Shown here piece after piece: positions 8,656 to 55,526 of a DNA stretch of 64,000 nt. Position numbers and translations under genes: made by a program. Source of the DNA: Candidatus Methylacidiphilales bacterium. GTDB lineage: Bacteria > Verrucomicrobiota > Verrucomicrobiia > Methylacidiphilales > CAZTYG01. The notes under the pieces are model-generated. The model was not told where the DNA came from and ran no database searches. It saw only the letters and a program-made list of their open reading frames with translations. Numbering within the stretch: position 1 is the first letter of the stretch; every line of letters starts with the position of its first letter. The stretch lies in contig JANRJG010000041.1 in NCBI GenBank assembly GCA_033875315.1, forward strand, positions 64,467 through 128,466. Direction: 5' to 3'.

Positions 8656-9627
8656 TCACTTCACCGCTTCCCCGCCGCTCGACTCCGCAAGCCTATTCCT
8701 CACCCGCACTCCGGCCCCGCACCCAGCAGGAATACCACAACAACCCGATAGAAAACAATCCCCCGCATCACGCAGCGCGGCCCAACCCCATCCCTCTGTT
8801 CTGAAAAAGCGGCGGTAATTCCCCGGCAGATACCTCCACAAATGCGCGCTGCCCCTGTTCCAATAGGCCAGGTAGGTCAAGTTCTGCAGCAGGGCACAAA
8901 ATTTGGCGTAACCCCTCCGGGAATTACTCCCGGGACTTTCTGGAGGAAGATGGGGAACGGCCACATCGCCCCTGAATACAGCCCCTTCAACTTGGGCCAC
9001 CCGCATGGAAAAATCCAAATCTTCGCCCAGCATCCAAAAATCTGTCCGGTGCAGTCCGGCTTTTGACACGGCGGCCACCGACACCAACTGACAGGCCCCG
9101 GTGGTCCACAAACAGGGATGCGCCGAGGATCCACATGCCCGGGCCACCGCCACAGGGTCACTCGTGCGGCGAAAAAGTCGCCGCAGCCCGAGTTGCCGTG
9201 GCTCGGGGAACCCCCAAATTTTCCCCTCGTGGTCCGTCAACAGCGGAACCGCCATGCCCGCCCCGGCCCCCGCCAGGGCCTCGAGTAAAAGGGCCAGGGT
9301 TTCCGGAGGTGGCGCCACATCATCATCCAGAATCCACCAGTGTGTCGGCGTGGGTTCAACAGACGCCGCCCTTTCCAACAAATGTTCCTCGGCCAACCTT
9401 AATCCCGCCCCACAACCCAGGTTCGATGCAGCCGCCAGATAAGTGGACTTGACCGGGAGCGTGGACACCGTTTCCCGTGTGGTGGGATCATTGGCATTGT
9501 CCACCACCACGATACCCGCCACTGGGTGGGTCTGTCTGGACAGACACTCTCCCAGTCTGCGGATTTCCTGTGGACGACGGTAAGTCGCCACCAATGCCAC
9601 CACCACCGCCGATCCTCCGGCTTTCAC
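8656..9627 (-). CDS. GT2 glycosyltransferase (rhamnosyltransferase-like)
   Basis: VVVALVATYRRPQEIRRLGECLSRQTHPVAGIVVVDNA... Start chosen at GTG 9627, which forms a GTGA overlap with the upstream stop. The track maximum is 9690. Confidence 0.75.
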   Translation of the reverse strand: MKAGGSAVVVALVATYRRPQEIRRLGECLSRQTHPVAGIVVVDNANDPTTRETVSTLPVKSTYLAAASNLGCGAGLRLAEEHLLERAASVEPTPTHWWILDDDVAPPPETLALLLEALAGAGAGMAVPLLTDHEGKIWGFPEPRQLGLRRLFRRTSDPVAVARACGSSAHPCLWTTGACQLVSVAAVSKAGLHRTDFWMLGEDLDFSMRVAQVEGAVFRGDVAVPHLPPESPGSNSRRGYAKFCALLQNLTYLAYWNRGSAHLWRYLPGNYRRFFRTEGWGWAALRDAGDCFLSGCCGIPAGCGAGVRVRNRLAESSGGEAVK

Positions 9628-10583
9628 CGCATCCACCTTCCCACACAGGCCCCTATCCGGCGACGTAGCGAATAAAGCCTTGCCCCGCACAAGCGCATCC
9701 AGCGTGCTCGTGCGCGGAAAAGCTCCCCCATGCCGTAACGTTCCGTCATTTCAGCCGTTTCATTCCACGCCCGCACCAATTGGGATCCTGTCTTCGAATC
9801 TGCATGCAGCCGTTGCACCGCCAAAACTTCGGCCAGATAAAACCAACGGGTATCTCGGGCAATCCTCAACCAGTATTCATGGTCCATGCAATATCGGAGG
9901 GCAGAATCCAAGGGACCGAAATGCTCATAAACCCGCCTCCGGATGAAAGTCGCCGGTTGGGAAACAAAATTGTCCCGCAGAAGGCGGGCGACCGAAAACG
10001 GTCCCGTCCGTTTTCTCCTCACCCAACCAGAATCCCCTTCCAAAAAAGCAAAGTCTCCGTAAACCACATCCACCTCGGGATTGGACTGGAAAACTTCCGC
10101 CACCCGGCCCAGGGCGCAAGGTTGCAGATAATCATCCGCACAAAGATACGATAGGAGGTCTCCTTTCGCCGCAGCGAAGCCCCGATTGATCGCATCCGTC
10201 TGCCCCCCATCCGGTTCGCTCACAAAACGGAATTCATATCGGTCCATTACGATGGAAGTCGGGTGATCCCGGAGCAAACCAGAATCCCGCCCCCTTTCAA
10301 CGCAAGGCGTTTCCCGCTTTTTTGTGTTTTCCTCCAACCACGCCACCGTCCCATCTGTGGAAACTCCGTCCTGAACCAGATGTTCCACGGAAAAATCCGA
10401 AACACTGGAACACTGAAATAAAGAGGGGGGCACCTCTCCCCCCTCTCCCCTTTTCAGCGTTTCAGTTTTCAATTTTTCAGCTTTTTCCAGAATCTGCCCC
10501 CGCACACTCTCCACACACTCCGGCAAATAAGCCACTTGGTTGAGGCTCGGGGTGATGATCGAAAACTTCAACATACCTTCCAC
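9624..10583 (-). CDS. GT2 glycosyltransferase with low-complexity insert
   Basis: MLKFSIITPSLNQ...VEHLVQDGVSTDGT...SEPDGGQTDAINRG...CADDY. A Lys/Glu/Gly-rich insert interrupts the N-terminal nucleotide-binding region (see findings). Confidence 0.8.
   Translation of the reverse strand: MEGMLKFSIITPSLNQVAYLPECVESVRGQILEKAEKLKTETLKRGEGGEVPPSLFQCSSVSDFSVEHLVQDGVSTDGTVAWLEENTKKRETPCVERGRDSGLLRDHPTSIVMDRYEFRFVSEPDGGQTDAINRGFAAAKGDLLSYLCADDYLQPCALGRVAEVFQSNPEVDVVYGDFAFLEGDSGWVRRKRTGPFSVARLLRDNFVSQPATFIRRRVYEHFGPLDSALRYCMDHEYWLRIARDTRWFYLAEVLAVQRLHADSKTGSQLVRAWNETAEMTERYGMGELFRARARWMRLCGARLYSLRRRIGACVGRWMR
10422..10446. other. perfect 9-bp GC-rich hairpin (agagggggg / cccccctct, 7-nt loop) inside the GT2 insert
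   Basis: Read directly. Followed on the + strand by cccc + tttcag-type T-rich octamers (10451-10490) and on the - strand by ttatttcag. Confidence 0.8.
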
Positions 10584-13767: not shown

Positions 13768-14945
13768 GGCAGGATATCCTTGTAAATGGAATCCATCTGG
13801 CGCAGCCAGCATGCTTCGTTGAATTTTTCTTCCAAGCCTTTCCGGCCCATGAAACCCATGGTAGCGGCCTCTTCAGGATTGGAAAGGATGTGATCCAAAA
13901 CAGAAGCCCAGACTTCCGGGTCGCCCGCACGTGCCAGCCATCCCGTTTCCCCATGTTGGATCAGCTCGGGCAGGGCCCCGATGTGCGAGGCCAGCACCGC
14001 CCGGCCGCGGGCCCAGGATTCCAGCACGGTCATGCCAAATGGCTCCTCCCAAATCGAGGGAACCACGGAAAAAAGCGATTGCTGCCAGATTTCCTGAATA
14101 TCCGCAGGCTTTTTGAAGCCCTCGAAGATGACCCCCCGTATGCGCTCCTCTCGCACTTTATTGACCAATCCGGTCAATTCAGGGCCTTCGCCGACAATGC
14201 GCAGGCGCACCTTGTCCGTTGCCAACCGCTTCCACGCGTCCAAAAGAACACCCACACCTTTTTCCTGTGACAGCCTCCCCACATAAACCACATCTCGGGC
14301 CTGCTCGAAAGAAAGGGCGGGCCCCTTGGGCTCGAAGAAATGATGCACGACCCGGATGCGGTCGGAGGGCACGCCCATGCGGATGTGGATGTCTTTCTGG
14401 GCCTGGCTGATGGCAATCCAGTATTTCACATGCGAAAAAAGGTCCATCTGGCGGATGCTCGTCAGCACCAACCCCATGATCCCGCTCTTGATATGGCTGT
14501 CGTGCCAACAGGCCGTACTCGCCGCCGCGAAAAAGTTTCCCCGGATACACCGCTGGCAGGCTTCCCCATGGTTCAGAAACATGCCGTTGACGCACGACAT
14601 CCGGTAATTGTGCAAATAATGCACAATCGGAATCCCCCGCTTGAGCGCCTCTCGGTAGACGACAGGTGACATCGCGGGAAACACATTATGGATCTGCCAG
14701 ACGTGGAACTTGCCCGCCTCTTGGTAGCGCCGCAACGTCTCCAAGACCTGCCGGTTGTAGAATACCGAGGCCAGCCCGTTCAAGACAGAAGACCTCTGAT
14801 TGAGCAGTTCGGATGTGCTGTACAAAAGGTATTCCACATCGTGCAGTTTTTGCAGCGCATCGCCGATCCGATAAACACTCCCTTCCTCGCCACCGTATTG
14901 CAGGTAGCGGTTGAATACTTGGAGGATGCGAAGCCGTTTATTCAC
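13764..14945 (-). CDS. GT4 (group 1) glycosyltransferase
   Basis: RILQVFNRYLQYGGEEGSV... with C-terminal EEPFGMTVLESWARGRAVLASHIGALPELI. The first 139 aa of the track ORF overlap the upstream gene and look non-protein-like. GTG 14945 gives a GTGA overlap with the upstream stop. Confidence 0.8.
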   Translation of the reverse strand: MNKRLRILQVFNRYLQYGGEEGSVYRIGDALQKLHDVEYLLYSTSELLNQRSSVLNGLASVFYNRQVLETLRRYQEAGKFHVWQIHNVFPAMSPVVYREALKRGIPIVHYLHNYRMSCVNGMFLNHGEACQRCIRGNFFAAASTACWHDSHIKSGIMGLVLTSIRQMDLFSHVKYWIAISQAQKDIHIRMGVPSDRIRVVHHFFEPKGPALSFEQARDVVYVGRLSQEKGVGVLLDAWKRLATDKVRLRIVGEGPELTGLVNKVREERIRGVIFEGFKKPADIQEIWQQSLFSVVPSIWEEPFGMTVLESWARGRAVLASHIGALPELIQHGETGWLARAGDPEVWASVLDHILSNPEEAATMGFMGRKGLEEKFNEACWLRQMDSIYKDILP

Positions 14946-15985
14946 CTGCTCCCCTTCCAACGCCAGGAGACGTTTCGGCAGACGAAGGCACTCCGCTGGC
15001 CGGGTTTTAGCGGGGTGTAAAGCGCATAGTCGACATGGCGGCGCCGGTAGGCCCCGGCAAACCCCTTCTCCAGCCAGTGCGCGGCTTTGACGAAGGGACG
15101 CAGCAGCCCACCCCGCCAGCCCATTCCCGTCCGCCATTGGCGCGCCTCCGCCAGAGCTCCCGGAGTCTGGCCCAGGTTCCCTTCGCCCATGGCGAAAGTA
15201 GCCAATGGCTTGGGCAGGACGGCCACCCGGAAACCCGCATGCATTACCCCGTGGACAAAAACCGCATCCCCGATGGCCTTCCATTCCACGGGAAAGCGGT
15301 GACCGGCCTCGGCCACCTTCCTGCGGTAAAACATGGCGCAACTCCAAACCCCCAGATGGCACAGACGGATATGCAGTGCCCGCGGCGGCACCACGCGACG
15401 ATAAGACAAAAGGGACCCATCCTCCCGGGTCAGCAGGGCATCCCCGAAGAGGACATCCGTGGCGGCATCACCCGAAAAAAAGTCGGCCACAACAGCCAGC
15501 GTGTCCGGCAGATACTGTTCATCACAATTCAAGTAAGCCAGGATTGCCCCCTCCGCCCGGGAGATCCCCTTGTTGATCGCATCGTACATACCGGTATCCG
15601 GCTCTTTGAAAATACGAAGCGCGTAACCGCATCGGGTGCGAAAGTGTAAAAGTTCAAAAGGTTGAAGGCCGGTGATGGCCTCTCCTCCATATTGGGAACG
15701 CAGGGTTTCGCCAAGTTCTTGGGCAAATTCCTCAATTCCCGGCGTGCCCCCGTCCTGGATCAAATGCTCCACGGCAAAGCCGTGGGTAGGAAAGGGGGAA
15801 GGTAATAAAGTGGGAACGTCCCCCGGTCCAAACTTGTTTACATTCCCACCTTCGCACTTTTTTACCTGCGTACCTTTCGACTTTTCACCTGCGCACTCCC
15901 CCCCCCCCTGATCCGCCACACTGGCAATACAAAGCCTCAACTTGTCCAATTGACCGAACGAGGGCGTGATGATGGAAAAGGTCAT
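14942..15985 (-). CDS. GT2 glycosyltransferase (paralogue of 9624..10583) with low-complexity insert and G11 tract
   Basis: MTFSIITPSFGQ...VEHLIQDGGTPG...EPDTGMYDAINKG...NCDEQY. ATG 15985 is preferred over the track start 16021, which would run into the repeat arm. Confidence 0.8.
   Translation of the reverse strand: MTFSIITPSFGQLDKLRLCIASVADQGGGECAGEKSKGTQVKKCEGGNVNKFGPGDVPTLLPSPFPTHGFAVEHLIQDGGTPGIEEFAQELGETLRSQYGGEAITGLQPFELLHFRTRCGYALRIFKEPDTGMYDAINKGISRAEGAILAYLNCDEQYLPDTLAVVADFFSGDAATDVLFGDALLTREDGSLLSYRRVVPPRALHIRLCHLGVWSCAMFYRRKVAEAGHRFPVEWKAIGDAVFVHGVMHAGFRVAVLPKPLATFAMGEGNLGQTPGALAEARQWRTGMGWRGGLLRPFVKAAHWLEKGFAGAYRRRHVDYALYTPLKPGQRSAFVCRNVSWRWKGSR
15898..15908. repeat. C11 (coding-strand G11) homopolymer inside GT2 gene 14942..15985
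   Basis: 3 C at 15898-15900 plus 8 C at 15901-15908. The coding strand reads CAG GGG GGG GGG GAG (QGGGE). Confidence 0.9.
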
Positions 15986-16003
15986 GGGAATCAGGAAAGT
16001 GCT

Positions 16004-16022
16004 AAGGTGGAAAAGTAGCAAG
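16004..16022. repeat. inverted-repeat arm (stop-codon side) of four-helix-bundle cassette 1
   Basis: aaggtggaaaagtagcaag. The reverse complement of 16444-16463 is aaggtgtaaaagtaggaaag. About 16 of 19 positions match by hand alignment. Confidence 0.6.
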
Positions 16023-16032
16023 TCTTCTCGCT

Positions 16033-16389
16033 CTAATCACGCAAATGCTTGGTAAATGCGGCTATCCGCTTCGACAGTTTTTCAGAAAGCTCGCGCAATT
16101 CCACCGTTTTGCTTTCGGACAATACCCGTATGTCCTCTGCTGCGTAAGTCATGCTGCGCACCTCCCCACAGGACCCCTTGGCCATATCCAGAAAATGGGC
16201 AAAATCCCGAGAAGTGTGCCGCTCGAATCCTTCGGCGATGTTGTTCATGACGGAGAGGGCCGCCCTCCGCATCTGATCGCGAAAAGAAAAATCCCTGCAA
16301 GATTCCAATGCCACATACGCTTGGAAATGAAGTTGTCGCGCTTCCTGCCAAATTTCCAAGTCTTCAAAACGCTGGGCAAACCGCTTCAT
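16033..16389 (-). CDS. four-helix-bundle protein (23S rRNA intervening-sequence protein / Avd-like family)
   Basis: FEDLEIWQEARQL..., RRAALSVMNNIAEGFER, FLDMAKGSCGEVRS: the motifs of this family. Confidence 0.85.
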   Translation of the reverse strand: MKRFAQRFEDLEIWQEARQLHFQAYVALESCRDFSFRDQMRRAALSVMNNIAEGFERHTSRDFAHFLDMAKGSCGEVRSMTYAAEDIRVLSESKTVELRELSEKLSKRIAAFTKHLRD

Positions 16390-16443
16390 GCCTCGTAAAA
16401 ACTACCTAAACCCATTCAGCCTTCAACCTTTCCGATCTTTATT

Positions 16444-16463
16444 CTTTCCTACTTTTACACCTT
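16444..16463. repeat. inverted-repeat arm (start-codon side) of four-helix-bundle cassette 1
   Basis: ctttcctacttttacacctt, partner of 16004-16022. 16403-16429 (ctacctaaacccattcagccttcaacc) next to it resembles the 28-nt element family. Confidence 0.6.
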
Positions 16464-16478
16464 CTTACTTCGCTGCCT

Positions 16479-17492
16479 ATGAAACTCCTCTTCGACCACC
16501 CCAGCCCGTTTCTTCTGGCCCATGGGGGATTTCAAACCCAGATCGAACAGACCAAGGCCGCCTTGGAAGGACTGGGCGTCGAAGTCGAATACCTCCGATG
16601 GTGGGACGACCGCCAGACCGGCAATATCATCCACTACTTCGGCCGCCCCTCCGGCGGTTACATCGACTTCGCCCATGGCAAAGGCATGAAAGTCGTCGTG
16701 GGAGAGCTCCACACCGGCCTCGCCTCACGGCCGGGCTGGCAGCGCTTGCTGCAGAAGCAAATCATGCGGACCGCCCAGTTCGCCCTCCCCCATGCTTTCA
16801 CGGCCAAACTCGCTTGGGAAGCCTATCAAAAAGCAGACGCCTTCATCGCCCTCACCGACTGGGAAAAACATCTCATGGTCGCAATGTTCGATGCCGATCC
16901 CGCCAAGGTTCACGTCATCCCGAATGGCGTCGAGGAGGTCTTCTTCCTGCCACCATCCGTAGTCCGCCGTCCATCCTCCGACTATTTGGTAAGCACCGCC
17001 ACCATCACCCCGCGCAAGCGCGTTCTGGAACTGGCCCAAGCCGCCGTCCTCGCCCAAGTTCCCGTTTGGATCATCGGAAAGCCCTACGCCGAGTCCGACC
17101 CTTATCACCAGCGCTTCCTCGAAACCGTTCGCGCCTCTGCGGGAATCGTGAAGTATGAAGGCGGCATTTCGGACCGTAAACGCTTGGCGGAAATTTACCA
17201 GAAGGCCAGGGGCTTTGTCCTGTTGAGCAGCATGGAATCCCTGAGCCTGTCCGCGTTGGAAGCATCGGCCAGCGGCTGTCCCCTCCTGCTGGCCGATCTG
17301 CCCTGGGCACGGAGCAGCTTCGGAAACGCGGCCACCTACGTCCCGGCAAAGACCACCCCAGAAGCCACCGCCAAACACCTGCTAACCTTCTACCACGCCG
17401 CCCCCGACCACCATCACACACCCATCGCCCATTCCTGGCCAGTCATCGCCCAAAAGTTCAAATCCCTGTACGAACAGCTTCTTGTCGGCTGA
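16479..17492 (+). CDS. GT4 (group 1) glycosyltransferase
   Basis: LLSSMESLSLSALEASASGCPLLLADLPW... GT1-type C-terminal domain. One of the few + strand genes. Confidence 0.78.
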   Translation: MKLLFDHPSPFLLAHGGFQTQIEQTKAALEGLGVEVEYLRWWDDRQTGNIIHYFGRPSGGYIDFAHGKGMKVVVGELHTGLASRPGWQRLLQKQIMRTAQFALPHAFTAKLAWEAYQKADAFIALTDWEKHLMVAMFDADPAKVHVIPNGVEEVFFLPPSVVRRPSSDYLVSTATITPRKRVLELAQAAVLAQVPVWIIGKPYAESDPYHQRFLETVRASAGIVKYEGGISDRKRLAEIYQKARGFVLLSSMESLSLSALEASASGCPLLLADLPWARSSFGNAATYVPAKTTPEATAKHLLTFYHAAPDHHHTPIAHSWPVIAQKFKSLYEQLLVG

Positions 17493-17513
17493 CCCCCCAA
17501 CCTCTGGCCTGGT

Positions 17514-19037
17514 TCAGGATTTTCCAATTTCTGGATTTTCCAATTTTTGCCTCTCGTGTTCCGGCAGATCGTCCAGCGCCACATAAAGCACTCCACCATA
17601 ACAAGCAAGTTGCACAATAGTATTTTGCAGGGCCCCGAACGTGGTAAAGTATGTAATTACTTCAGCAATCACATAAGCGCAGGCCCAAATCTGCACCGGT
17701 TTAGCCTGTCTGGCCTTGAACATAAACACACCCGCCTTCAGGAGGAAGGCCAAGCAGAGCAGACAGAAAGCCACTGAACCCACAATCCCGGTCGTGTCAT
17801 ACACGCTGATCCATCCAATGTGGTAGTCCTTCCGCGTGATAAACTCGCGTGATTCGTCCGCAGCATTCAGTCCCACTTGTATACCCCGATTCATGAATTG
17901 ACTGGGATCAAATTGAAATCCTGTTCCGATCCAGGGGCTCCTCATGGCAAACTCCTCAAGGTAAATTGTCTTCATGCTTTCGCGGAAAGCATTGGAGGCC
18001 AGCGCGCTCTTCATGGCGGAATCATCCCACTCTCCAGGAAGAAAGCTGAGGCTTCGCTGGACCATGACGGGCAGGTTGAAGACTCTATTTTGCCCCATTG
18101 TTAAAAAAACCATGCCAACAAGACCGATCAATAAGAACGGCAACACCTTCCAACGCAAAGTCATAAAGGCGGCGACAGAATTGACCACAACGTACACAAA
18201 CAACGCACCGCGAAATCCACTTGCGAGCGTTCCATAAAGACAGAGCACGGATAACAACAGCACCCACAGTCGTCCGGGATGCCACCATGAGGTGATTTTG
18301 TAGCGGGTGATCAGCAGCACTTGTAGTGCTGTGGTAAAAGTGGCCAATTCACCCTGTCGCTTCGCCGCTTCGTCCCCCGAAAAACCTGAGACCATCTGCT
18401 CGTAGGCCGAAGCGTCGTACATGCCAAACAACTGATAAATCACTCCGGAAGTGGAAGGAAAAAAAGTGGTGATGTAGAGCGGCACAATGGCAACCAGCGT
18501 GCTCAGACAGTAAATCAACGGCAGCCTCTCGAGAGACATCATGTCCCCCTTGCGCAGGGTGAGGATCAGGCTAAAGGCCAAGAGTGCGAAGATAAAATTA
18601 AGGTTACGTCGCGCACCAAAAGTCTCTCCCCCCAGCAAATTCATTCCAATACCGCCCATGTACCAATGATAGAGAATGATGGAAAAAAGAATCGCGAAGG
18701 GAAGCCATATCCAGACCGGACCCACCCGCAGCATGCGCTTTTGGAATGAAAGGTAGGAGGTTAGATAAAAAGCCGTACCAGCCAATATAACAAACTCAAA
18801 AACGGTGAACCGCCCGGGAAGGAAGTTGAATTTCCATTTGATCACAATGGCTATGGGTATAAACACCCATGTGTTGTCTTTGACCAAACCGAATATTGCC
18901 AACACAACGCTCAACCCAACAAACAGAAGGATGCCCTTGTAATCTCCATCTCCCACATTGATGCCGAAATAAAAAGCCAAGAGAATCCCCGCCAACAGAA
19001 CGGCACCAATCACCAGTTTTTGCACGTAGTACTGCAT
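17514..19037 (-). CDS. polytopic membrane protein, O-antigen polymerase/ligase (Wzy)-like
   Basis: More than 10 hydrophobic segments, visibly more AT-rich than its neighbours, and located in a glycan locus. No diagnostic motif recognised. Confidence 0.5.
   Translation of the reverse strand: MQYYVQKLVIGAVLLAGILLAFYFGINVGDGDYKGILLFVGLSVVLAIFGLVKDNTWVFIPIAIVIKWKFNFLPGRFTVFEFVILAGTAFYLTSYLSFQKRMLRVGPVWIWLPFAILFSIILYHWYMGGIGMNLLGGETFGARRNLNFIFALLAFSLILTLRKGDMMSLERLPLIYCLSTLVAIVPLYITTFFPSTSGVIYQLFGMYDASAYEQMVSGFSGDEAAKRQGELATFTTALQVLLITRYKITSWWHPGRLWVLLLSVLCLYGTLASGFRGALFVYVVVNSVAAFMTLRWKVLPFLLIGLVGMVFLTMGQNRVFNLPVMVQRSLSFLPGEWDDSAMKSALASNAFRESMKTIYLEEFAMRSPWIGTGFQFDPSQFMNRGIQVGLNAADESREFITRKDYHIGWISVYDTTGIVGSVAFCLLCLAFLLKAGVFMFKARQAKPVQIWACAYVIAEVITYFTTFGALQNTIVQLACYGGVLYVALDDLPEHERQKLENPEIGKS
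17518..17549. repeat. 16-nt tandem duplication (ggattttccaatttct / ggattttccaattttt) at the 3' end of the Wzy-like gene
   Basis: Read directly. Encodes the C-terminal ...KLENPEIGKS. Confidence 0.8.
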
Positions 19038-51775: not shown

Positions 51776-51987
51776 TTGCCGGGGATTTCAAAGAGTTCTT
51801 CCGCAGATTCATCTTCATCCCCTCGGATGAAGGAAGGCATTTGCAGGTCCAGCATCGCTTTTCGTTCGAGCGAGATACTCAGAAGCTCATTTTCGGTATA
51901 AAGTTCTAAGTGTGCCCCCTCGGGAATGGGTTCGCTCGAGTCTATGACCCGCAACACGCCACCCTCCTTGACGACAGTGATACTCAT
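51772..51987 (-). CDS. small antitoxin-like protein (DUF104/AF2212-like N-terminus)
   Basis: 71 aa MSITVVKEGGVLRVIDSSEPIPEGAHLEL... with an acidic tail. ATGA overlaps at both ends: with the rfbG stop (51984-51987) and the toxin-domain start (51772-51775). The track's longer 145-aa version overlaps rfbG. Confidence 0.5.
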   Translation of the reverse strand: MSITVVKEGGVLRVIDSSEPIPEGAHLELYTENELLSISLERKAMLDLQMPSFIRGDEDESAEELFEIPGK

Positions 51988-53225
51988 AATGGTGCATGAT
52001 ACTCCCTGATCTGTCTCCGGGTCAATTCTCCCGGATTGCCCCCCTCGTGAACTCCACGATACCACGCCACGGTTTGTGACAACGTGGTGGCAAAATCCCA
52101 TCGCGGTGACCAGCCCAACAGATGATGGGCCTTGTCCCAGACGAGATTGAGCTTCCCGGCCTCGTGGGGGGCGTTCGGGTCGGAGCGGTCCTCCCAGGTG
52201 CCTGGCCAATGTTTGAGTATTTCCTCGACCAGCTCTTCGACCGTCTTGTTGGATTCCAGATGGGGACCGAAGTTGAAGGCGGCGCAGAGCTCTGCCGTTG
52301 AAGGGTTGAAGGGTTGAGAGGTCGAGGGGATTCCACCTTTAAATCCTTCAACGCCGCCTGCGGCGGCATTCACCCCATCAACACTTGCGGCGAGACGAGC
52401 CGCAAGGAGGAGATAACCGGACAGAGGCTCCAACACGTGCTGCCAGGGACGGGTGGAGATTTTGTTGCGCACGGGCACCGGATGTCCGGAAGCAAGGGCG
52501 CGGATGGCGTCGGGCACAATACGGTCCATAGCCCAATCCCCGCCCCCGATGACATTGCCCGCCCGGGCCGAGGCAACGAAGCACGATGCACGAAGCCCTT
52601 CATCTTCGAAAAACGAATTCCGCCAGGAAGCAATGGCGATCTCCGCCGCGCCTTTGCTCGAACTGTAGGGATCGTGGCCGCCGAGCGGATCCACTTCCCG
52701 GTAGCCGTGCAACCACTCACGGTTTTCGTACACTTTGTCGGTGGTGATGAGGACCGCGACGGTCGTCACCTTGCTCAAGTTTGAGTCGGAAGTTGAAACT
52801 CCCCTTAAACTTGCGGCTTTGGCTTCTTGAAGTGCCCTCAGCGCTTCAAGAACATGGATGGTGCCCATGACGTTGGTTTCCCAGGTCTCCACCGGGGTGC
52901 TGTAGGACAAGCGGACCAAGGGTTGGGCGGCCAGGTGGAAGACGAAGTCGGGCGAAATTTCCAATACGGTCTTTTTCACCGAAGCCCCGTCGCGGATGTC
53001 ACCTCGGCGGTCATTCATTCGGGAGGCGAGTCCCAGTTGATCGAAGAGACAGGGCGAGGACACGGGCTCCGGCAGGCTGAAGCCATGGACCTTGGCCCCG
53101 AGGGAGAGGAGCCACTCACAGAGCCAGGCCCCTTTGAATCCGGTGTGGCCGGTCACGAAAACGTTCTTTCCAAGGAACGTTTTCGTGAGTTGAAGTTGTG
53201 AATTTAAGTTTAAGAGGGAACTCAT
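51984..53225 (-). CDS. rfbG: CDP-glucose 4,6-dehydratase
   Basis: VFVTGHTGFKGAWL, FHLAAQPLVRLSY, DKVYENREW, DPYSSSKGAAE, RAGNVIGGGDW, RPWQHVLEPLSGY. Carries in-frame inserts (see findings). Confidence 0.9.
   Translation of the reverse strand: MSSLLNLNSQLQLTKTFLGKNVFVTGHTGFKGAWLCEWLLSLGAKVHGFSLPEPVSSPCLFDQLGLASRMNDRRGDIRDGASVKKTVLEISPDFVFHLAAQPLVRLSYSTPVETWETNVMGTIHVLEALRALQEAKAASLRGVSTSDSNLSKVTTVAVLITTDKVYENREWLHGYREVDPLGGHDPYSSSKGAAEIAIASWRNSFFEDEGLRASCFVASARAGNVIGGGDWAMDRIVPDAIRALASGHPVPVRNKISTRPWQHVLEPLSGYLLLAARLAASVDGVNAAAGGVEGFKGGIPSTSQPFNPSTAELCAAFNFGPHLESNKTVEELVEEILKHWPGTWEDRSDPNAPHEAGKLNLVWDKAHHLLGWSPRWDFATTLSQTVAWYRGVHEGGNPGELTRRQIREYHAPL
52297..52328. repeat. tandem octamer array (gttgaagg x2, gttgagag, gtcgaggg) inside rfbG
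   Basis: Four consecutive 8-nt units. A further gttgaagg lies at 52272-52279 and an inverted copy ccttcaac at 52345-52352. Confidence 0.75.
52824..52852. other. perfect 9-bp hairpin (ttcttgaag / cttcaagaa, 11-nt loop) inside rfbG; neighbouring 9/10 hairpin 52776-52785 / 52804-52813
   Basis: Read directly. Both lie in the segment encoding the rfbG insert ...QEAKAASLRGVSTSDSNLSKVTT... Confidence 0.75.
53187..53216. repeat. inverted-repeat arm (stop-codon side) of four-helix-bundle cassette 2; also encodes the rfbG N-terminal extension
   Basis: gagttgaagttgtgaatttaagtttaagag. The reverse complement of 53594-53619 is cttgaagttgtaattttaagttagag. Matched blocks of 10+5+5+4 nt separated by small bulges. 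Confidence 0.7.
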
Positions 53226-53584
53226 TTTAAGACATCCGGGGTTTTCAGGCTTCTGGTAAACGCATAAAGTATGTGCGAAAAATCCGCACGTTCACGCAGA
53301 TAAGTTTCCAACTCGGCACCGGTTGCGACCGCCAACTCCCAGGCAATCATCAACTGCGATCTAAGTTCACCAAGTGGGCCCCGGGCGATGCCCACAAAAC
53401 GGGCAAATTCCGCAGGAAAGTTTCGTTCCGCCCGTTCTGCGATTTTGGAGGGCACACTGATGGCGGTTCGTAAAATCCGGCCTCGTAGTGCAAAGAAACG
53501 GCAATCAATGAACACACGACAAACGTAGACGGTCGGTTTGTGGGCTCTTTCCCAAATTTCCAGATCCTCAAAGCCTCTGCTCAT
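53222..53584 (-). CDS. four-helix-bundle protein (23S rRNA IVS protein / Avd-like family), divergent copy
   Basis: FEDLEIWERAHK..., RTAISVPSKIAERAER, IARGPLGELRSQL. ATGA overlap with the rfbG start. Confidence 0.75.
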   Translation of the reverse strand: MSRGFEDLEIWERAHKPTVYVCRVFIDCRFFALRGRILRTAISVPSKIAERAERNFPAEFARFVGIARGPLGELRSQLMIAWELAVATGAELETYLRERADFSHILYAFTRSLKTPDVLK

Positions 53585-53593
53585 GACAATCCG

Positions 53594-53619
53594 CTCTAAC
53601 TTAAAATTACAACTTCAAG
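53594..53619. repeat. inverted-repeat arm (start-codon side) of four-helix-bundle cassette 2
   Basis: ctctaacttaaaattacaacttcaag, 9 nt upstream of the ATG at 53584. Confidence 0.7.
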
Positions 53620-53635
53620 ACGCGACAGAGCCGCG

Positions 53636-54403
53636 TCACCAAACCTTCCAAGGCGCTTTCCCGCTGTTCCAAAGTTCTTCAAGGTGATTCTTATCCCGGA
53701 GGGTATCCATCGGCTGCCAGAATCCTTCGTGCTTGAAGGCCCTCATCTGGCCTTCGGCGGCCAATCGCTCCATGGGCTCCTTTTCCCAAAGCGTTCCATC
53801 ACCCTCCACATGCCCGAGAACCGAGGGATCGAGGACAAAAAAACCACCGTTGATCCAGGAGCCGTCTCCCTTGGGTTTCTCTTGGAAGGCAACCATTTCG
53901 TCCCCGTCTAGTTGCAGCGCACCGAATCTCCCGCTGGGCTGCACGGCGGTCAAAGTGGCCTTTTTCCCATGGGCCTTGTGGAAGGCGATAAGCGCCTTGA
54001 TGTCAACATCCCCCACACCATCTCCATAGGTCATACAGAAGGCACCGTCCTGCACATAAGGAGCGATCCGCTTCAGCCGCCCACCGGTCATCGTGTCTTC
54101 ACCCGTGTCGACGATGGTGACCCGCCAAGGCTCGGTGCGTTTTTCATGTACTTCCATTTTATTGTCCCGCATGTCAAAGGTTACATCGGATTGGTGGAGA
54201 AAATAATTGGCGAAATATTCTTTGATCAGGTATCCCCGGTAACCCGCGCAAATGACAAAGTCATGGATGCCGTGGGCCGAGTAAATCTTCATGATGTGCC
54301 AAAGGATGGGATAATTCCCGATCTGGACCATGGGCTTGGGCTTGAGGGAGGTTTCTTCGCTGAGTCGGGTGCCCAAACCTCCGGCCAAAAGAACTGCTTT
54401 CAT
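53636..54403 (-). CDS. rfbF: glucose-1-phosphate cytidylyltransferase
   Basis: MKAVLLAGGLGTRLSEETSLKPKPMVQIGNYPILWHIMKIYSAHGIHDFVICAGYRGYLIKEYFANY is nearly canonical RfbF. Confidence 0.92.
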   Translation of the reverse strand: MKAVLLAGGLGTRLSEETSLKPKPMVQIGNYPILWHIMKIYSAHGIHDFVICAGYRGYLIKEYFANYFLHQSDVTFDMRDNKMEVHEKRTEPWRVTIVDTGEDTMTGGRLKRIAPYVQDGAFCMTYGDGVGDVDIKALIAFHKAHGKKATLTAVQPSGRFGALQLDGDEMVAFQEKPKGDGSWINGGFFVLDPSVLGHVEGDGTLWEKEPMERLAAEGQMRAFKHEGFWQPMDTLRDKNHLEELWNSGKAPWKVW

Positions 54404-54650: not shown

Positions 54651-55526
54651 ATGATATTGCTTTTGGGAGCTTCCGGTTACATAGGTTCGGCATTCCAAAC
54701 GCACTACCGTTCCAGGAACCTTGATTTCAAGGCTGTTTCCCTGACCCATTCACCTGACCCAAGGGAATCACTGGCCAAAGCCATCCGGGAGCTCCGCCCC
54801 ACTTTCTTGGTCAATTGCGCGGGCTTTACAGGGAAACCCAATGTGGACGCAGCAGAAGACCGCAAGGCCGAGTGCCTGGAGGTCAACACCCATCTCCCAA
54901 GCATGATTGCCCAAATATGCGCCGATCACCAATTGCCCTGGGGTCACGTTTCTTCGGGCTGCATTTATACCGGCAGCAAATCCTGCGGCTCGGGATTTTC
55001 CGAGGAAGACCCACCCAACTTCGATTTCCGCCACAACAACTGCAGTTTCTACAGCGGCTCCAAAGCCCTGGCCGAAGAAGTTCTCAAAGAAGCCCCCAAC
55101 TGTTTCCTCTGGCGACTCCGCATTCCCTTCAATGAGTTCGACCATCCTCGCAATTACCTCACCAAACTCATGCGCTACTCCCGTCTCCTCGATGTGCGCA
55201 ACTCCATTTCCCAGGTAGACGATTTCGTCCGGGCCTGTTGTGAAACCTGGTCCAAACGGCTTCCCTATGGCACCTACAATATGACCAATCCCGGCTCGGT
55301 CACCACCCGCGAGGTGGCCGCCCTCATTGAAAAATACGGTCTTGGACGCCCCGGAGGCTTCCAGTTTTTCGAGTCCGAGGATGAATTCATGCAACTGGCC
55401 GCGACCACACCGCGGGCCAGTTGCGTTCTTGACTCATCCAAGTTGGCTACGCATGGCATCGTTCTCAGGGAAGTACATGACTCCATCGAATGGTGTTTGA
55501 AGAACTGGCGCCCGGCCGCCCCTTGA
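54651..55526 (+). CDS. NAD(P)-dependent sugar nucleotide reductase, NRS/ER-like (4-keto-6-deoxyhexose epimerase/reductase type)
   Basis: ILLLGASGYIGSAF, SFYSGSKALAE, HPRNYLTKLMRYSRLLDVRNSIS resembles the plant/viral NRS/ER (UER1) C-terminal motif. Paralogue of 60018..60890. Could instead be the terminal reductase of the CDP-dideoxyhexose route. Confidence 0.65.
   Translation: MILLLGASGYIGSAFQTHYRSRNLDFKAVSLTHSPDPRESLAKAIRELRPTFLVNCAGFTGKPNVDAAEDRKAECLEVNTHLPSMIAQICADHQLPWGHVSSGCIYTGSKSCGSGFSEEDPPNFDFRHNNCSFYSGSKALAEEVLKEAPNCFLWRLRIPFNEFDHPRNYLTKLMRYSRLLDVRNSISQVDDFVRACCETWSKRLPYGTYNMTNPGSVTTREVAALIEKYGLGRPGGFQFFESEDEFMQLAATTPRASCVLDSSKLATHGIVLREVHDSIEWCLKNWRPAAP

Follow-up and report, generated by a model that had tools for sequence, protein, structure and literature searches.

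Since their discovery in the intervening sequences (IVSs) of 23S rRNA, open reading frames (ORFs) of the PF05635 family have had no known function, and in thousands of genomes their products are annotated merely as "four helix bundle protein." In the IVS of Coxiella burnetii, inverted repeats at the termini make up a 28-bp stem with the S23p ORF (PF05635 family) in its loop, and two to four tandem heptamers (GACAGAT), the number varying by strain, are found just upstream of the ATG (PMC4990558). RNase III cuts within this stem in vitro, and the ORF has been reported as decaying and probably untranslated (PMC4990558). Here, we describe a PF05635 gene that is enclosed by an inverted repeat in a protein-coding locus. 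The element, designated cassette 1, was identified in a 64,000-nucleotide stretch of contig JANRJG010000041.1 from a Candidatus Methylacidiphilales bacterium (the window, to which all coordinates refer), where it occupies ~490 bp on the minus strand (positions 15986-16478) and spans the intergenic spacer between a GT4 and a GT2 glycosyltransferase gene of a polysaccharide locus.

Cassette 1 shares with the 23S rRNA IVSs of C. burnetii and Leptospira (PMC4990558) a PF05635/S23p ORF in the loop, terminal inverted repeats (forming a stem of ~25 to 28 bp in the IVSs), co-orientation of the ORF with the host transcript, a patchy distribution, and ORF-less variants. Short tandem repeats on the start side, heptameric and of variable copy number in the IVSs, recur clearly in the cassettes as a class, with a weak period of 8/16 nt in cassette 1. 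A stem of at least ~20 bp enclosing the ORF is also predicted for cassette 1 (23 pairs, with a competing partner at 15839-15860). The differences lie in the host, a protein-coding operon rather than helix 25 or 45 of 23S rRNA, in RNase III excision, which for cassette 1 is only predicted, and in the ORF, on which purifying selection is strong in the cassettes (across 78 pairs, the median dN/dS is 0.065), in contrast to the reportedly decaying Coxiella ORF. Searches of the 64-kb window with Rfam models at gathering thresholds returned 0 matches, so cassette 1, flanked by the GT2 and GT4 genes, does not lie in helix 25 or 45 of 23S rRNA. As it combines a location outside 23S rRNA with an IVS-like anatomy, cassette 1 was classed as a variant of the IVS-type element.

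Other known elements also resemble the cassettes in part. Avd of diversity-generating retroelements (DGRs; structures 4DWL and 8UB7) has the same four-helix-bundle fold as the cassette 1 protein (template modeling [TM] score, 0.76, by superposition of the AlphaFold2 model on 4DWL); it forms a pentameric barrel, binds stem-loops in the DGR RNA, and comes with a long-range duplex flanking the template repeat (TR). Sequence identity to Avd is only ~9%, and neither a reverse transcriptase nor a template/variable repeat pair was found among the scanned genes beside the cassettes. A Pfam scan of the seven ORFs between 9.6 and 19 kb identified six glycosyltransferases/Wzy proteins, one ORF without a Pfam family, and no reverse transcriptase; none was found among the two neighbors of cassette 2, a second PF05635 cassette in the window. 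Repetitive extragenic palindromic (REP) sequences with their REP-associated tyrosine transposases (RAYTs), together known as REPtrons, and MITEs (miniature inverted-repeat transposable elements) similarly comprise a gene bracketed by short inverted structured repeats, with many dispersed ORF-less hairpins, between operon genes. The cassette protein is a 118-amino-acid four-helix bundle without a known catalytic motif rather than a Y1 transposase (IS200/IS605-like), and unlike those of MITEs and REPtrons, the cassette arms are not conserved within a genome and consist of tandem 7- to 8-nt arrays. The likeness is one of analogy only. Finally, the GGGAATC heptamers of Xanthomonas, with 70 to 75 convergent pairs (PMC4692102), and the cyanobacterial short tandemly repeated repetitive (STRR) heptamers are intergenic tandem repeats, often in inverted pairs able to form stem-loops, that lie just past the upstream gene of co-directional pairs and vary in length between close relatives. 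The Xanthomonas study draws no link to PF05635 genes, and neither "S23" nor "four helix" occurs in its text; the repeats are instead read as G-quadruplex formers (PMC4692102).

Cassette 1 is probably an IVS-type hairpin cassette whose hosts are mRNA operons. Because a family external to rRNA shows the same hairpin architecture, lies co-oriented at stop|start junctions of housekeeping and polysaccharide operons, and is gained or lost between near-identical relatives, the rRNA IVS would no longer be an rRNA curiosity but one of the sites where hairpin cassettes of a general class have landed. This opens to direct tests whether RNase III processes operon mRNAs at these stems, whether the Avd-like protein binds the arms, and where the abundant hairpins of intergenic heptamers come from. 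No description of PF05635 genes bracketed by inverted repeats outside rRNA was found in a literature search that covered few subscription journals, so an earlier description may exist.

The cassette 1 gene and its inverted arms

The ORF at 16033-16389 (minus strand) encodes 118 amino acids and ends in a TAG stop codon. Its product matched PF05635 with an E value of 6e-30 and 104 bits (cut-off, 33.8) and the NCBIfam model TIGR02436, "four helix bundle protein," with 93.6 bits (cut-off, 24), which bears out its assignment to the four-helix-bundle/IVS-protein family in an earlier note made from the letters of this DNA alone. An identical protein entry at NCBI derives from a metagenome-assembled genome of Candidatus Methylacidiphilales, phylum Verrucomicrobiota. 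The AlphaFold2 monomer model (predicted local distance difference test score, 93.6) was placed by Foldseek in the four-helix-bundle fold, with a TM score of 0.87 and a root mean square deviation of 1.2 Å to XCC0516 (2gsc_B), and superposed on BT_0352/2RLD with a TM score of 0.80; a phmmer search also recovered 2gsc_A (E value, 5.9e-9). PADLOC gave no match for the PF05635 protein of either cassette.

The strings reported in the earlier note were correct throughout, as were their coordinates: positions 16004-16022 have the sequence aaggtggaaaagtagcaag, and reverse complementation of 16444-16463 gives aaggtgtaaaagtaggaaag. An inverted repeat search extended this match to 30 nt (15992-16021 and 16446-16475), with 77% complementarity and 424 nt between the arms. 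The start-side (5′) arm, 16446-16475, is rich in G, A, and T and almost devoid of C on the sense strand, and 4 nt separate its end from the ATG of the GT4 gene. The stop-side (3′) arm, 15992-16021, is pyrimidine rich on the sense strand, beginning 11 nt past the stop codon and ending 6 nt short of the ATG of the GT2 gene. Between the 5′ arm and the ATG of the PF05635 gene lies a leader (16390-16445) containing a second, unpaired arm-like unit (16403-16429; sense GGTTGAAGGCTGAATGGGTTTAGGTAG) that resembles the arm of cassette 2 and an ORF-less hairpin at 52296-52353. Cassette 1 has a weak periodicity of 8/16 nt (P = 0.01 to 0.04), with P = 0.01 in the leader flank.

The bracket exceeded the expectation from local composition. 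Against dinucleotide shuffles of the flanks, the gapped score gave z = 4.8, with 0 of 60 shuffles reaching an equal score, and the ungapped score gave z = 5.1 over 100 shuffles. Sliding the same geometry (120-nt flanks placed 357 nt apart) across the entire window gave 4,227 positions, of which only 0.17% reached the score of cassette 1; all of these belonged to the two cassettes or to a single further site. In a search of the entire window for inverted repeats within 700 nt, the brackets of the two PF05635 genes were longer than all others. The shuffle, sliding, and whole-window tests thus agree with the earlier claim that the bracket is not a product of low-complexity sequence. The third site of the sliding test is an 18-nt inverted repeat near cassette 2 (54243-54260 and 54806-54823; 89% complementary, 545 nt apart).

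An argument in the earlier note, that the stop-side arm is flipped relative to nearby members of its repeat family as a closing stem demands, stood in part: this arm is flipped, and other flipped arms occur less than 200 nt away (15785-15819, pairing with 15848-15867).

Upstream, the insertion site is bordered by the divergent GT4 gene (16479-17492, plus strand; Pfam), whose ATG is at 16479. The co-directional downstream GT2 gene occupies 14942-15985 (minus strand), as determined from Pfam matches, translation, and an alignment of homologues, and its true start is the ATG at 15985, giving the N terminus MTFSIITPSFGQ. In the NCBI annotation, only the 276-amino-acid portion 3′ of an in-frame insert is present, as a "hypothetical protein"; the annotation pipeline cut the gene short at the in-frame hairpin.

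Inverted arms accompany PF05635 genes in several phyla

To place cassette 1 among its relatives, 80 loci with PF05635 genes were collected, at one genome per species, from Verrucomicrobiota, Bacteroidota, Balneolaceae, Deltaproteobacteria, Chloroflexi, Acidobacteria, and Ignavibacteria. In the 77 that were testable, the 120 nt past the stop codon were reverse complemented and compared with the 120 nt upstream of the ATG. The gapped score exceeded z = 3 in 62 of the 77 loci (median, 5.3). With the ungapped score and 100 shuffles, 77% of the 77 PF05635 genes had z > 3 in the inverted orientation (median, 5.7), against 21% in the direct orientation and 3.4% of 264 other genes from the same loci (Mann-Whitney P = 3e-25); several of the control genes that exceeded z = 3 were second PF05635 copies. 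Among verrucomicrobial loci outside the window, z exceeded 3 in 9 of 11. The earlier note had asked whether four-helix-bundle genes are generally flanked by arms, and in these loci most of them are; its central claim, that an ORF closed by an inverted repeat represents a real class of element, was supported both by the composition tests above and by the recurrence of arm complementarity in other copies and at an orthologous site (L082).

The arms consist of short tandem units. In 55 of 78 loci, the upstream flank matched itself best at a period of 7 or 14 nt, and in 11 at 8 nt. The units differ by lineage and include GTTTCAR, GTTTAAA, AGTCNAA, GGTGNGAA, GAGTCTG, and GGGTTGC, among others, so that pairing is kept while sequence is not, and they vary even between proteins that are ~70% identical. 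In the window itself, the arms of cassettes 1 and 2 are unrelated in sequence although they belong to one genome. With only the pairing retained between copies, the arms offer nothing to align for a covariance model. A polarity is nevertheless common to them: the 5′ arm has more G than C and the 3′ arm more C than G in 56 loci, and the reverse in 3. Since a GT-rich 5′ arm reads alike on both strands, the polarity is intrinsic to the hairpin and carries no information on the direction of transcription; its use as evidence for sense transcription was therefore rejected.

The PF05635 gene had the same orientation as both of its neighbors in 56 of 66 loci and opposed both in 2, with gaps mostly of 25 to 100 nt. 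A Pfam census of 142 neighboring proteins was led by ABC_tran/SufC (18), SufBD (10), epimerases/dehydratases (7 to 8), and DNA polymerase III delta (7), followed by Wza/Wzc-type proteins (4 to 6), CysRS (4), and GTP cyclohydrolase I (4). The suggestion that these genes are enriched in polysaccharide loci does not hold generally, as neighbors elsewhere include sufC/sufD and the genes for DNA polymerase III delta, CysRS, and GTP cyclohydrolase I. PF05635 cassettes live in ordinary operons, of which polysaccharide loci are frequent but not exclusive hosts.

Presence/absence polymorphism and turnover

The gene order GT4(−)|GT2(+)→GT4(+) around cassette 1 is retained in four lineages (loci L081, L082, L166, and P0142). 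At the same GT4|GT2 position, L082/L083 carries a 117-amino-acid PF05635 gene with its own complementary arms. L082 and L083 represent the same locus, 96% identical throughout, and a comparison of the left boundary between them was dropped for this reason. Empty sites with neither a cassette nor periodic arms were found in L081 (62-nt gap), L084 (137 nt), L166 (177 nt), L168 (258 nt), and L167, and the P0142 locus has an 86-nt gap without a cassette gene. From these empty orthologous sites, the 493-nt GT4|GT2 spacer of the window can be equated with the cassette.

Turnover was also seen at the sufC|sufD junction, for which 80 metagenome loci related to one Flavobacterium sufD were retrieved and 79 could be scored. 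The junction was bare in 21 (gap of ~1 to 11 nt), held a short insert in 34, and held a long insert in 24. The short inserts measured ~30 to 140 nt, and 31 of the 34 folded as hairpins (z < −2); most of the long inserts carried a PF05635 ORF in the loop of a hairpin. All three states (bare, hairpin only, and hairpin with ORF) occurred among relatives with SufD proteins at least 95% identical, and the hairpins in these close Flavobacterium relatives were unrelated to one another and built of differing units. These states imply repeated independent strikes on one stop|start junction. As a single SufC C-terminal tail is common to all three, the insert lies exactly between the stop codon and the ATG. 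Two PF05635 subtypes, ~40% identical, were present at this junction, one with the arm unit GTTTCAR (17 of 17) and the other with AGTCNAA (8 of 8); this perfect linkage indicates that ORF and arms travel as one unit. Locus L140 lacks the ORF but retains ~90 nt from the 3′ end of an L151-type cassette; it is a deletion derivative, and ORF-less forms can therefore arise by deletion.

Some further variants were noted at sufC|sufD. In L098, L102, L135, and L147, units of the AGTCNAA type extend into the final sufC codons and give tails such as ...ESQKS; in L102 a tail of this type persists though the remaining cassette is gone. In L142 and L143, a 651-nt insert holds two small ORFs in place of the cassette. 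Judged by eye, the second (ending ...LVTNDAHF...) resembles a toxin of the PIN-domain (VapC-like) type, and the small ORF in front of it resembles an antitoxin gene.

Predicted RNA pairing and a proposed mechanism

Folding of 15986-16478 (minus strand) gave minimum free energy and centroid structures that were both closed by the cassette 1 arms. The closing stem contained 23 pairs with a probability of >0.5, most of them >0.9, and the arm duplex had a predicted energy of −24.5 kcal/mol. For cassette 2, 33 pairs with a probability of >0.5 and a total-energy z of −2.8 were obtained.

Cassette 1, a promoterless-looking PF05635 gene with its own inverted arms of short tandem units in an otherwise short divergent GT4|GT2 intergenic region, probably belongs to a class of elements spread across phyla. 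Members of this class would enter operons where the stop codon of one gene meets the start codon of the next, in the orientation of the host genes. Such elements would turn over fast and decay to ORF-less hairpins, and the ORF-containing IVSs of 23S rRNA would be the first-described members of the class. In the host transcript, the arms would pair into an interrupted helix of ~23 bp with the ORF looped out. This helix is a predicted RNase III substrate, and by analogy with rRNA IVSs, cleavage may excise the cassette RNA from the operon transcript or sever the two. One possible role for the protein would be to bind the arm RNA, as Avd binds the stem-loops of DGRs.

Several results weigh against this reading. 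The total folding energy of cassette 1 was no lower than that of shuffled sequences (z = +0.8). The stop-side arm complements 15839-15860 (22 nt, 86%), inside the GT2 gene, better than it does the start-side arm, and in the predicted ensemble of 15760-16478 its pairing shifted to that segment (15.9 expected bp, against 0.0 for the start-side arm). Co-transcriptional order would favor the cassette stem over this pairing. As the divergent GT4 gene has its ATG 4 nt from the end of the start-side arm, this arm would be present in RNA only if transcription starts within the GT4 coding region, and it may lie outside the transcript; a scan of 15700-16700 found no sigma-70-like promoter. Arm mismatches showed no excess of G·U over A·C (58 versus 55), so there is no RNA-specific signature, and pairing at the DNA level or recent arm-to-arm copying fits equally well. 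Comparison of filled and empty junctions identified neither a target-site duplication nor an insertion mechanism: at filled junctions, the insert replaces a few nucleotides between the stop codon and the ATG, and no duplication is discernible. RNase III cleavage has been demonstrated for rRNA IVSs only.

The alternative stem between 15839-15860 and 15992-16021 would enclose the start codon and first 26 codons of the GT2 gene. It could act as an alternative-pairing switch, or could simply reflect cross-pairing in one repeat family.

Alternative explanations

In a wider, more speculative reading, which we consider doubtful, PF05635 cassettes and ORF-less hairpins of 7- to 8-nt repeats would form one multiphylum mobile system resembling RAYT/REP. 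The Avd-like PF05635 pentamer would bind its own arms and promote copying of the hairpin, either by itself or with help from the host (by RNase III, a reverse transcriptase, or the replication machinery). The targets of copying in this same doubtful scheme would be operon stop|start junctions, rRNA helices (giving the classical IVSs), and even in-frame coding sequence. If true, it would assign a function to a family that ranks among the most abundant uncharacterized small proteins of bacteria; 7,867 of the candidates that one search scored reached an E value of ≤1e-5.

The arms may instead act in DNA, as terminal inverted repeats or as a cruciform or single-stranded hairpin, for transposition or recombination in the manner of MITEs, IS200/IS605-type ends, or REP/RAYT, with the RNA stem as a by-product. 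Identical junctions that are filled in some relatives and empty in others, the several unrelated inserts found at one site, the common ORF-less derivatives, and mismatches without G·U bias are all in keeping with such an element, as is an arm polarity (GT-rich 5′ arm; 56 versus 3 and 20 versus 1) that is the same on both strands and is not tied to transcription. A trans-acting transposase recognizing the ends is made unlikely, however, by arms that differ wholly between copies, both between cassettes 1 and 2 and between subtypes in one genus. Pfam scans of the neighboring genes found no transposase or recombinase beside the cassettes, no target-site duplication was visible, and the strong co-orientation bias of the ORF also argues against this explanation, which on balance is unlikely.

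Alternatively, the arms could be binding-site arrays for a pentameric PF05635 protein, with about one 7- to 8-nt unit per subunit, in autoregulation or in a ribonucleoprotein, and complementarity would then be of secondary importance or a means of offering the protein a duplex. Each arm holds 3 to 5 units, the solved homologues 2GSC, 2RLD, and 4DWL have five chains each, the Xanthomonas protein has been described as a homopentamer (PMC4990558), and Avd-binding stem-loops have been described in DGR RNA. The perfect linkage between ORF subtype and arm unit points the same way, but simple co-inheritance of ORF and arms would predict it equally. ORF-less hairpins, moreover, persist, and the unit sequence differs even among proteins that are ~70% identical; we regard this explanation, too, as having little likelihood.

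It is quite improbable that the arms are host cis-regulatory hairpins, be they for stabilization or processing between cistrons, or leader motifs that the divergent GT2 and GT4 genes have in common, with the PF05635 gene merely lying in the loop. The motif CTACTTTTNCACCTT does occur in the sense orientation 16 to 19 nt upstream of the ATGs of both GT2 and GT4, both arms of cassette 1 directly precede gene starts in that orientation, and ORF-less hairpins fill intercistronic gaps. Yet empty orthologous sites are wholly without arms, and bare junctions with gaps of a few nucleotides function in close relatives. A geometry of two divergent leaders is inapplicable where flanking genes are co-directional, as they are in 56 of 66 loci, and a leader or promoter motif shared by GT2 and GT4 was rejected as a general explanation on this ground and on that of the armless empty sites.

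A chance encounter of two facing copies of a locally abundant low-complexity repeat is very improbable: the same unit family does occur at least four more times within 6 kb, the stop-side arm fits another copy better, and the repeat is modest in length and identity, but the shuffle and window-wide tests and the presence of the architecture in 77% of homologous loci against 3% of controls refute it as far as statistics can.

Cassette 2 and hairpins lacking an ORF in the window

Cassette 2 (53183-53625, minus strand) has the same organization as the IVS-type cassette proposed for cassette 1. Its arms, 53591-53625 and 53183-53217, form a 35-nt bracket with 77% complementarity (z = 6.3 to 7.5) around a PF05635 ORF at 53222-53584 (minus strand), whose product is 36% identical to the cassette 1 protein. 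The neighboring genes, which encode an NTP-transferase (RfbF-like) and a CDP-glucose 4,6-dehydratase, share the strand of the cassette.

Three hairpins without an ORF were found in frame within coding sequences of the window. Rickettsia palindromic elements are in-frame palindromic inserts in protein-coding genes. The inserts of the window (15785-15900, 10425-10505, and 52296-52353) are likewise palindromic and keep the frame; they differ from the Rickettsia elements in being unrelated in sequence, in belonging to another phylum, and in sharing units with the arms of the adjacent ORF-bearing cassette.

The first, at 15785-15900 (minus strand) in the GT2 gene downstream of cassette 1, was recovered by the inverted repeat search with arms at 15839-15897 and 15785-15819. 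It directly follows a conserved ASVADQ motif and is made of 8-nt units of the cassette-arm family, with 8-nt periodicity (P < 0.005). In about half of the aligned GT2 homologues, a variable low-complexity insert of 30 to 70 amino acids occupies this position, and the rest have none. Adjoining the hairpin, in the 5′ part of the GT2 frame, is a run of 11 C (G11 in the sense orientation; 15898-15908), the longest G/C run of the window. Homopolymer tracts of such length in glycosyltransferase genes are classic sites of slipped-strand phase variation.

The second insert (10425-10505, minus strand), consisting of CTGAAAA-type units followed by a G6/C6 stem, lies at the equivalent position, after SVRGQ, in another GT2 gene (9624-10576). 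The third (52296-52353, minus strand; fold z = −2.4) was identified by the inverted repeat search in the CDP-glucose 4,6-dehydratase gene (51984-53225) and is made of GTTGAAGG-type units similar to the arms of cassette 2. It falls within a 25-amino-acid insert relative to the Yersinia enzyme 1RKX, with the HMMER alignment to 1rkx_A breaking at 285/311, in a protein that is otherwise highly conserved (E value, 6e-96). The dehydratase contains a second insert, of 19 amino acids (residues ~138 to 156), that is not clearly a hairpin.

Two other traces of repeat sequence were noted. At the convergent junction of the GT4 and Wzy-like genes, a 16-nt periodic repeat (17510-17555; sense GGAAAATCC(A/T)GAAATT; self-identity, 0.70), for which no inverted partner was found, codes for the final residues of the Wzy-like ORF. 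In GT2 homologues (alignment columns ~135 to 180; L082, positions 2860 to 2900; L168), a conserved peptide, ...LQTFELLHFRT..., is encoded by periodic sequence of the 3′-arm type (CTTCAAACTTTTGAACTTTTGAAC...) and is missing from homologues without the first insert. This peptide may be a former repeat arm that became fixed as coding sequence.

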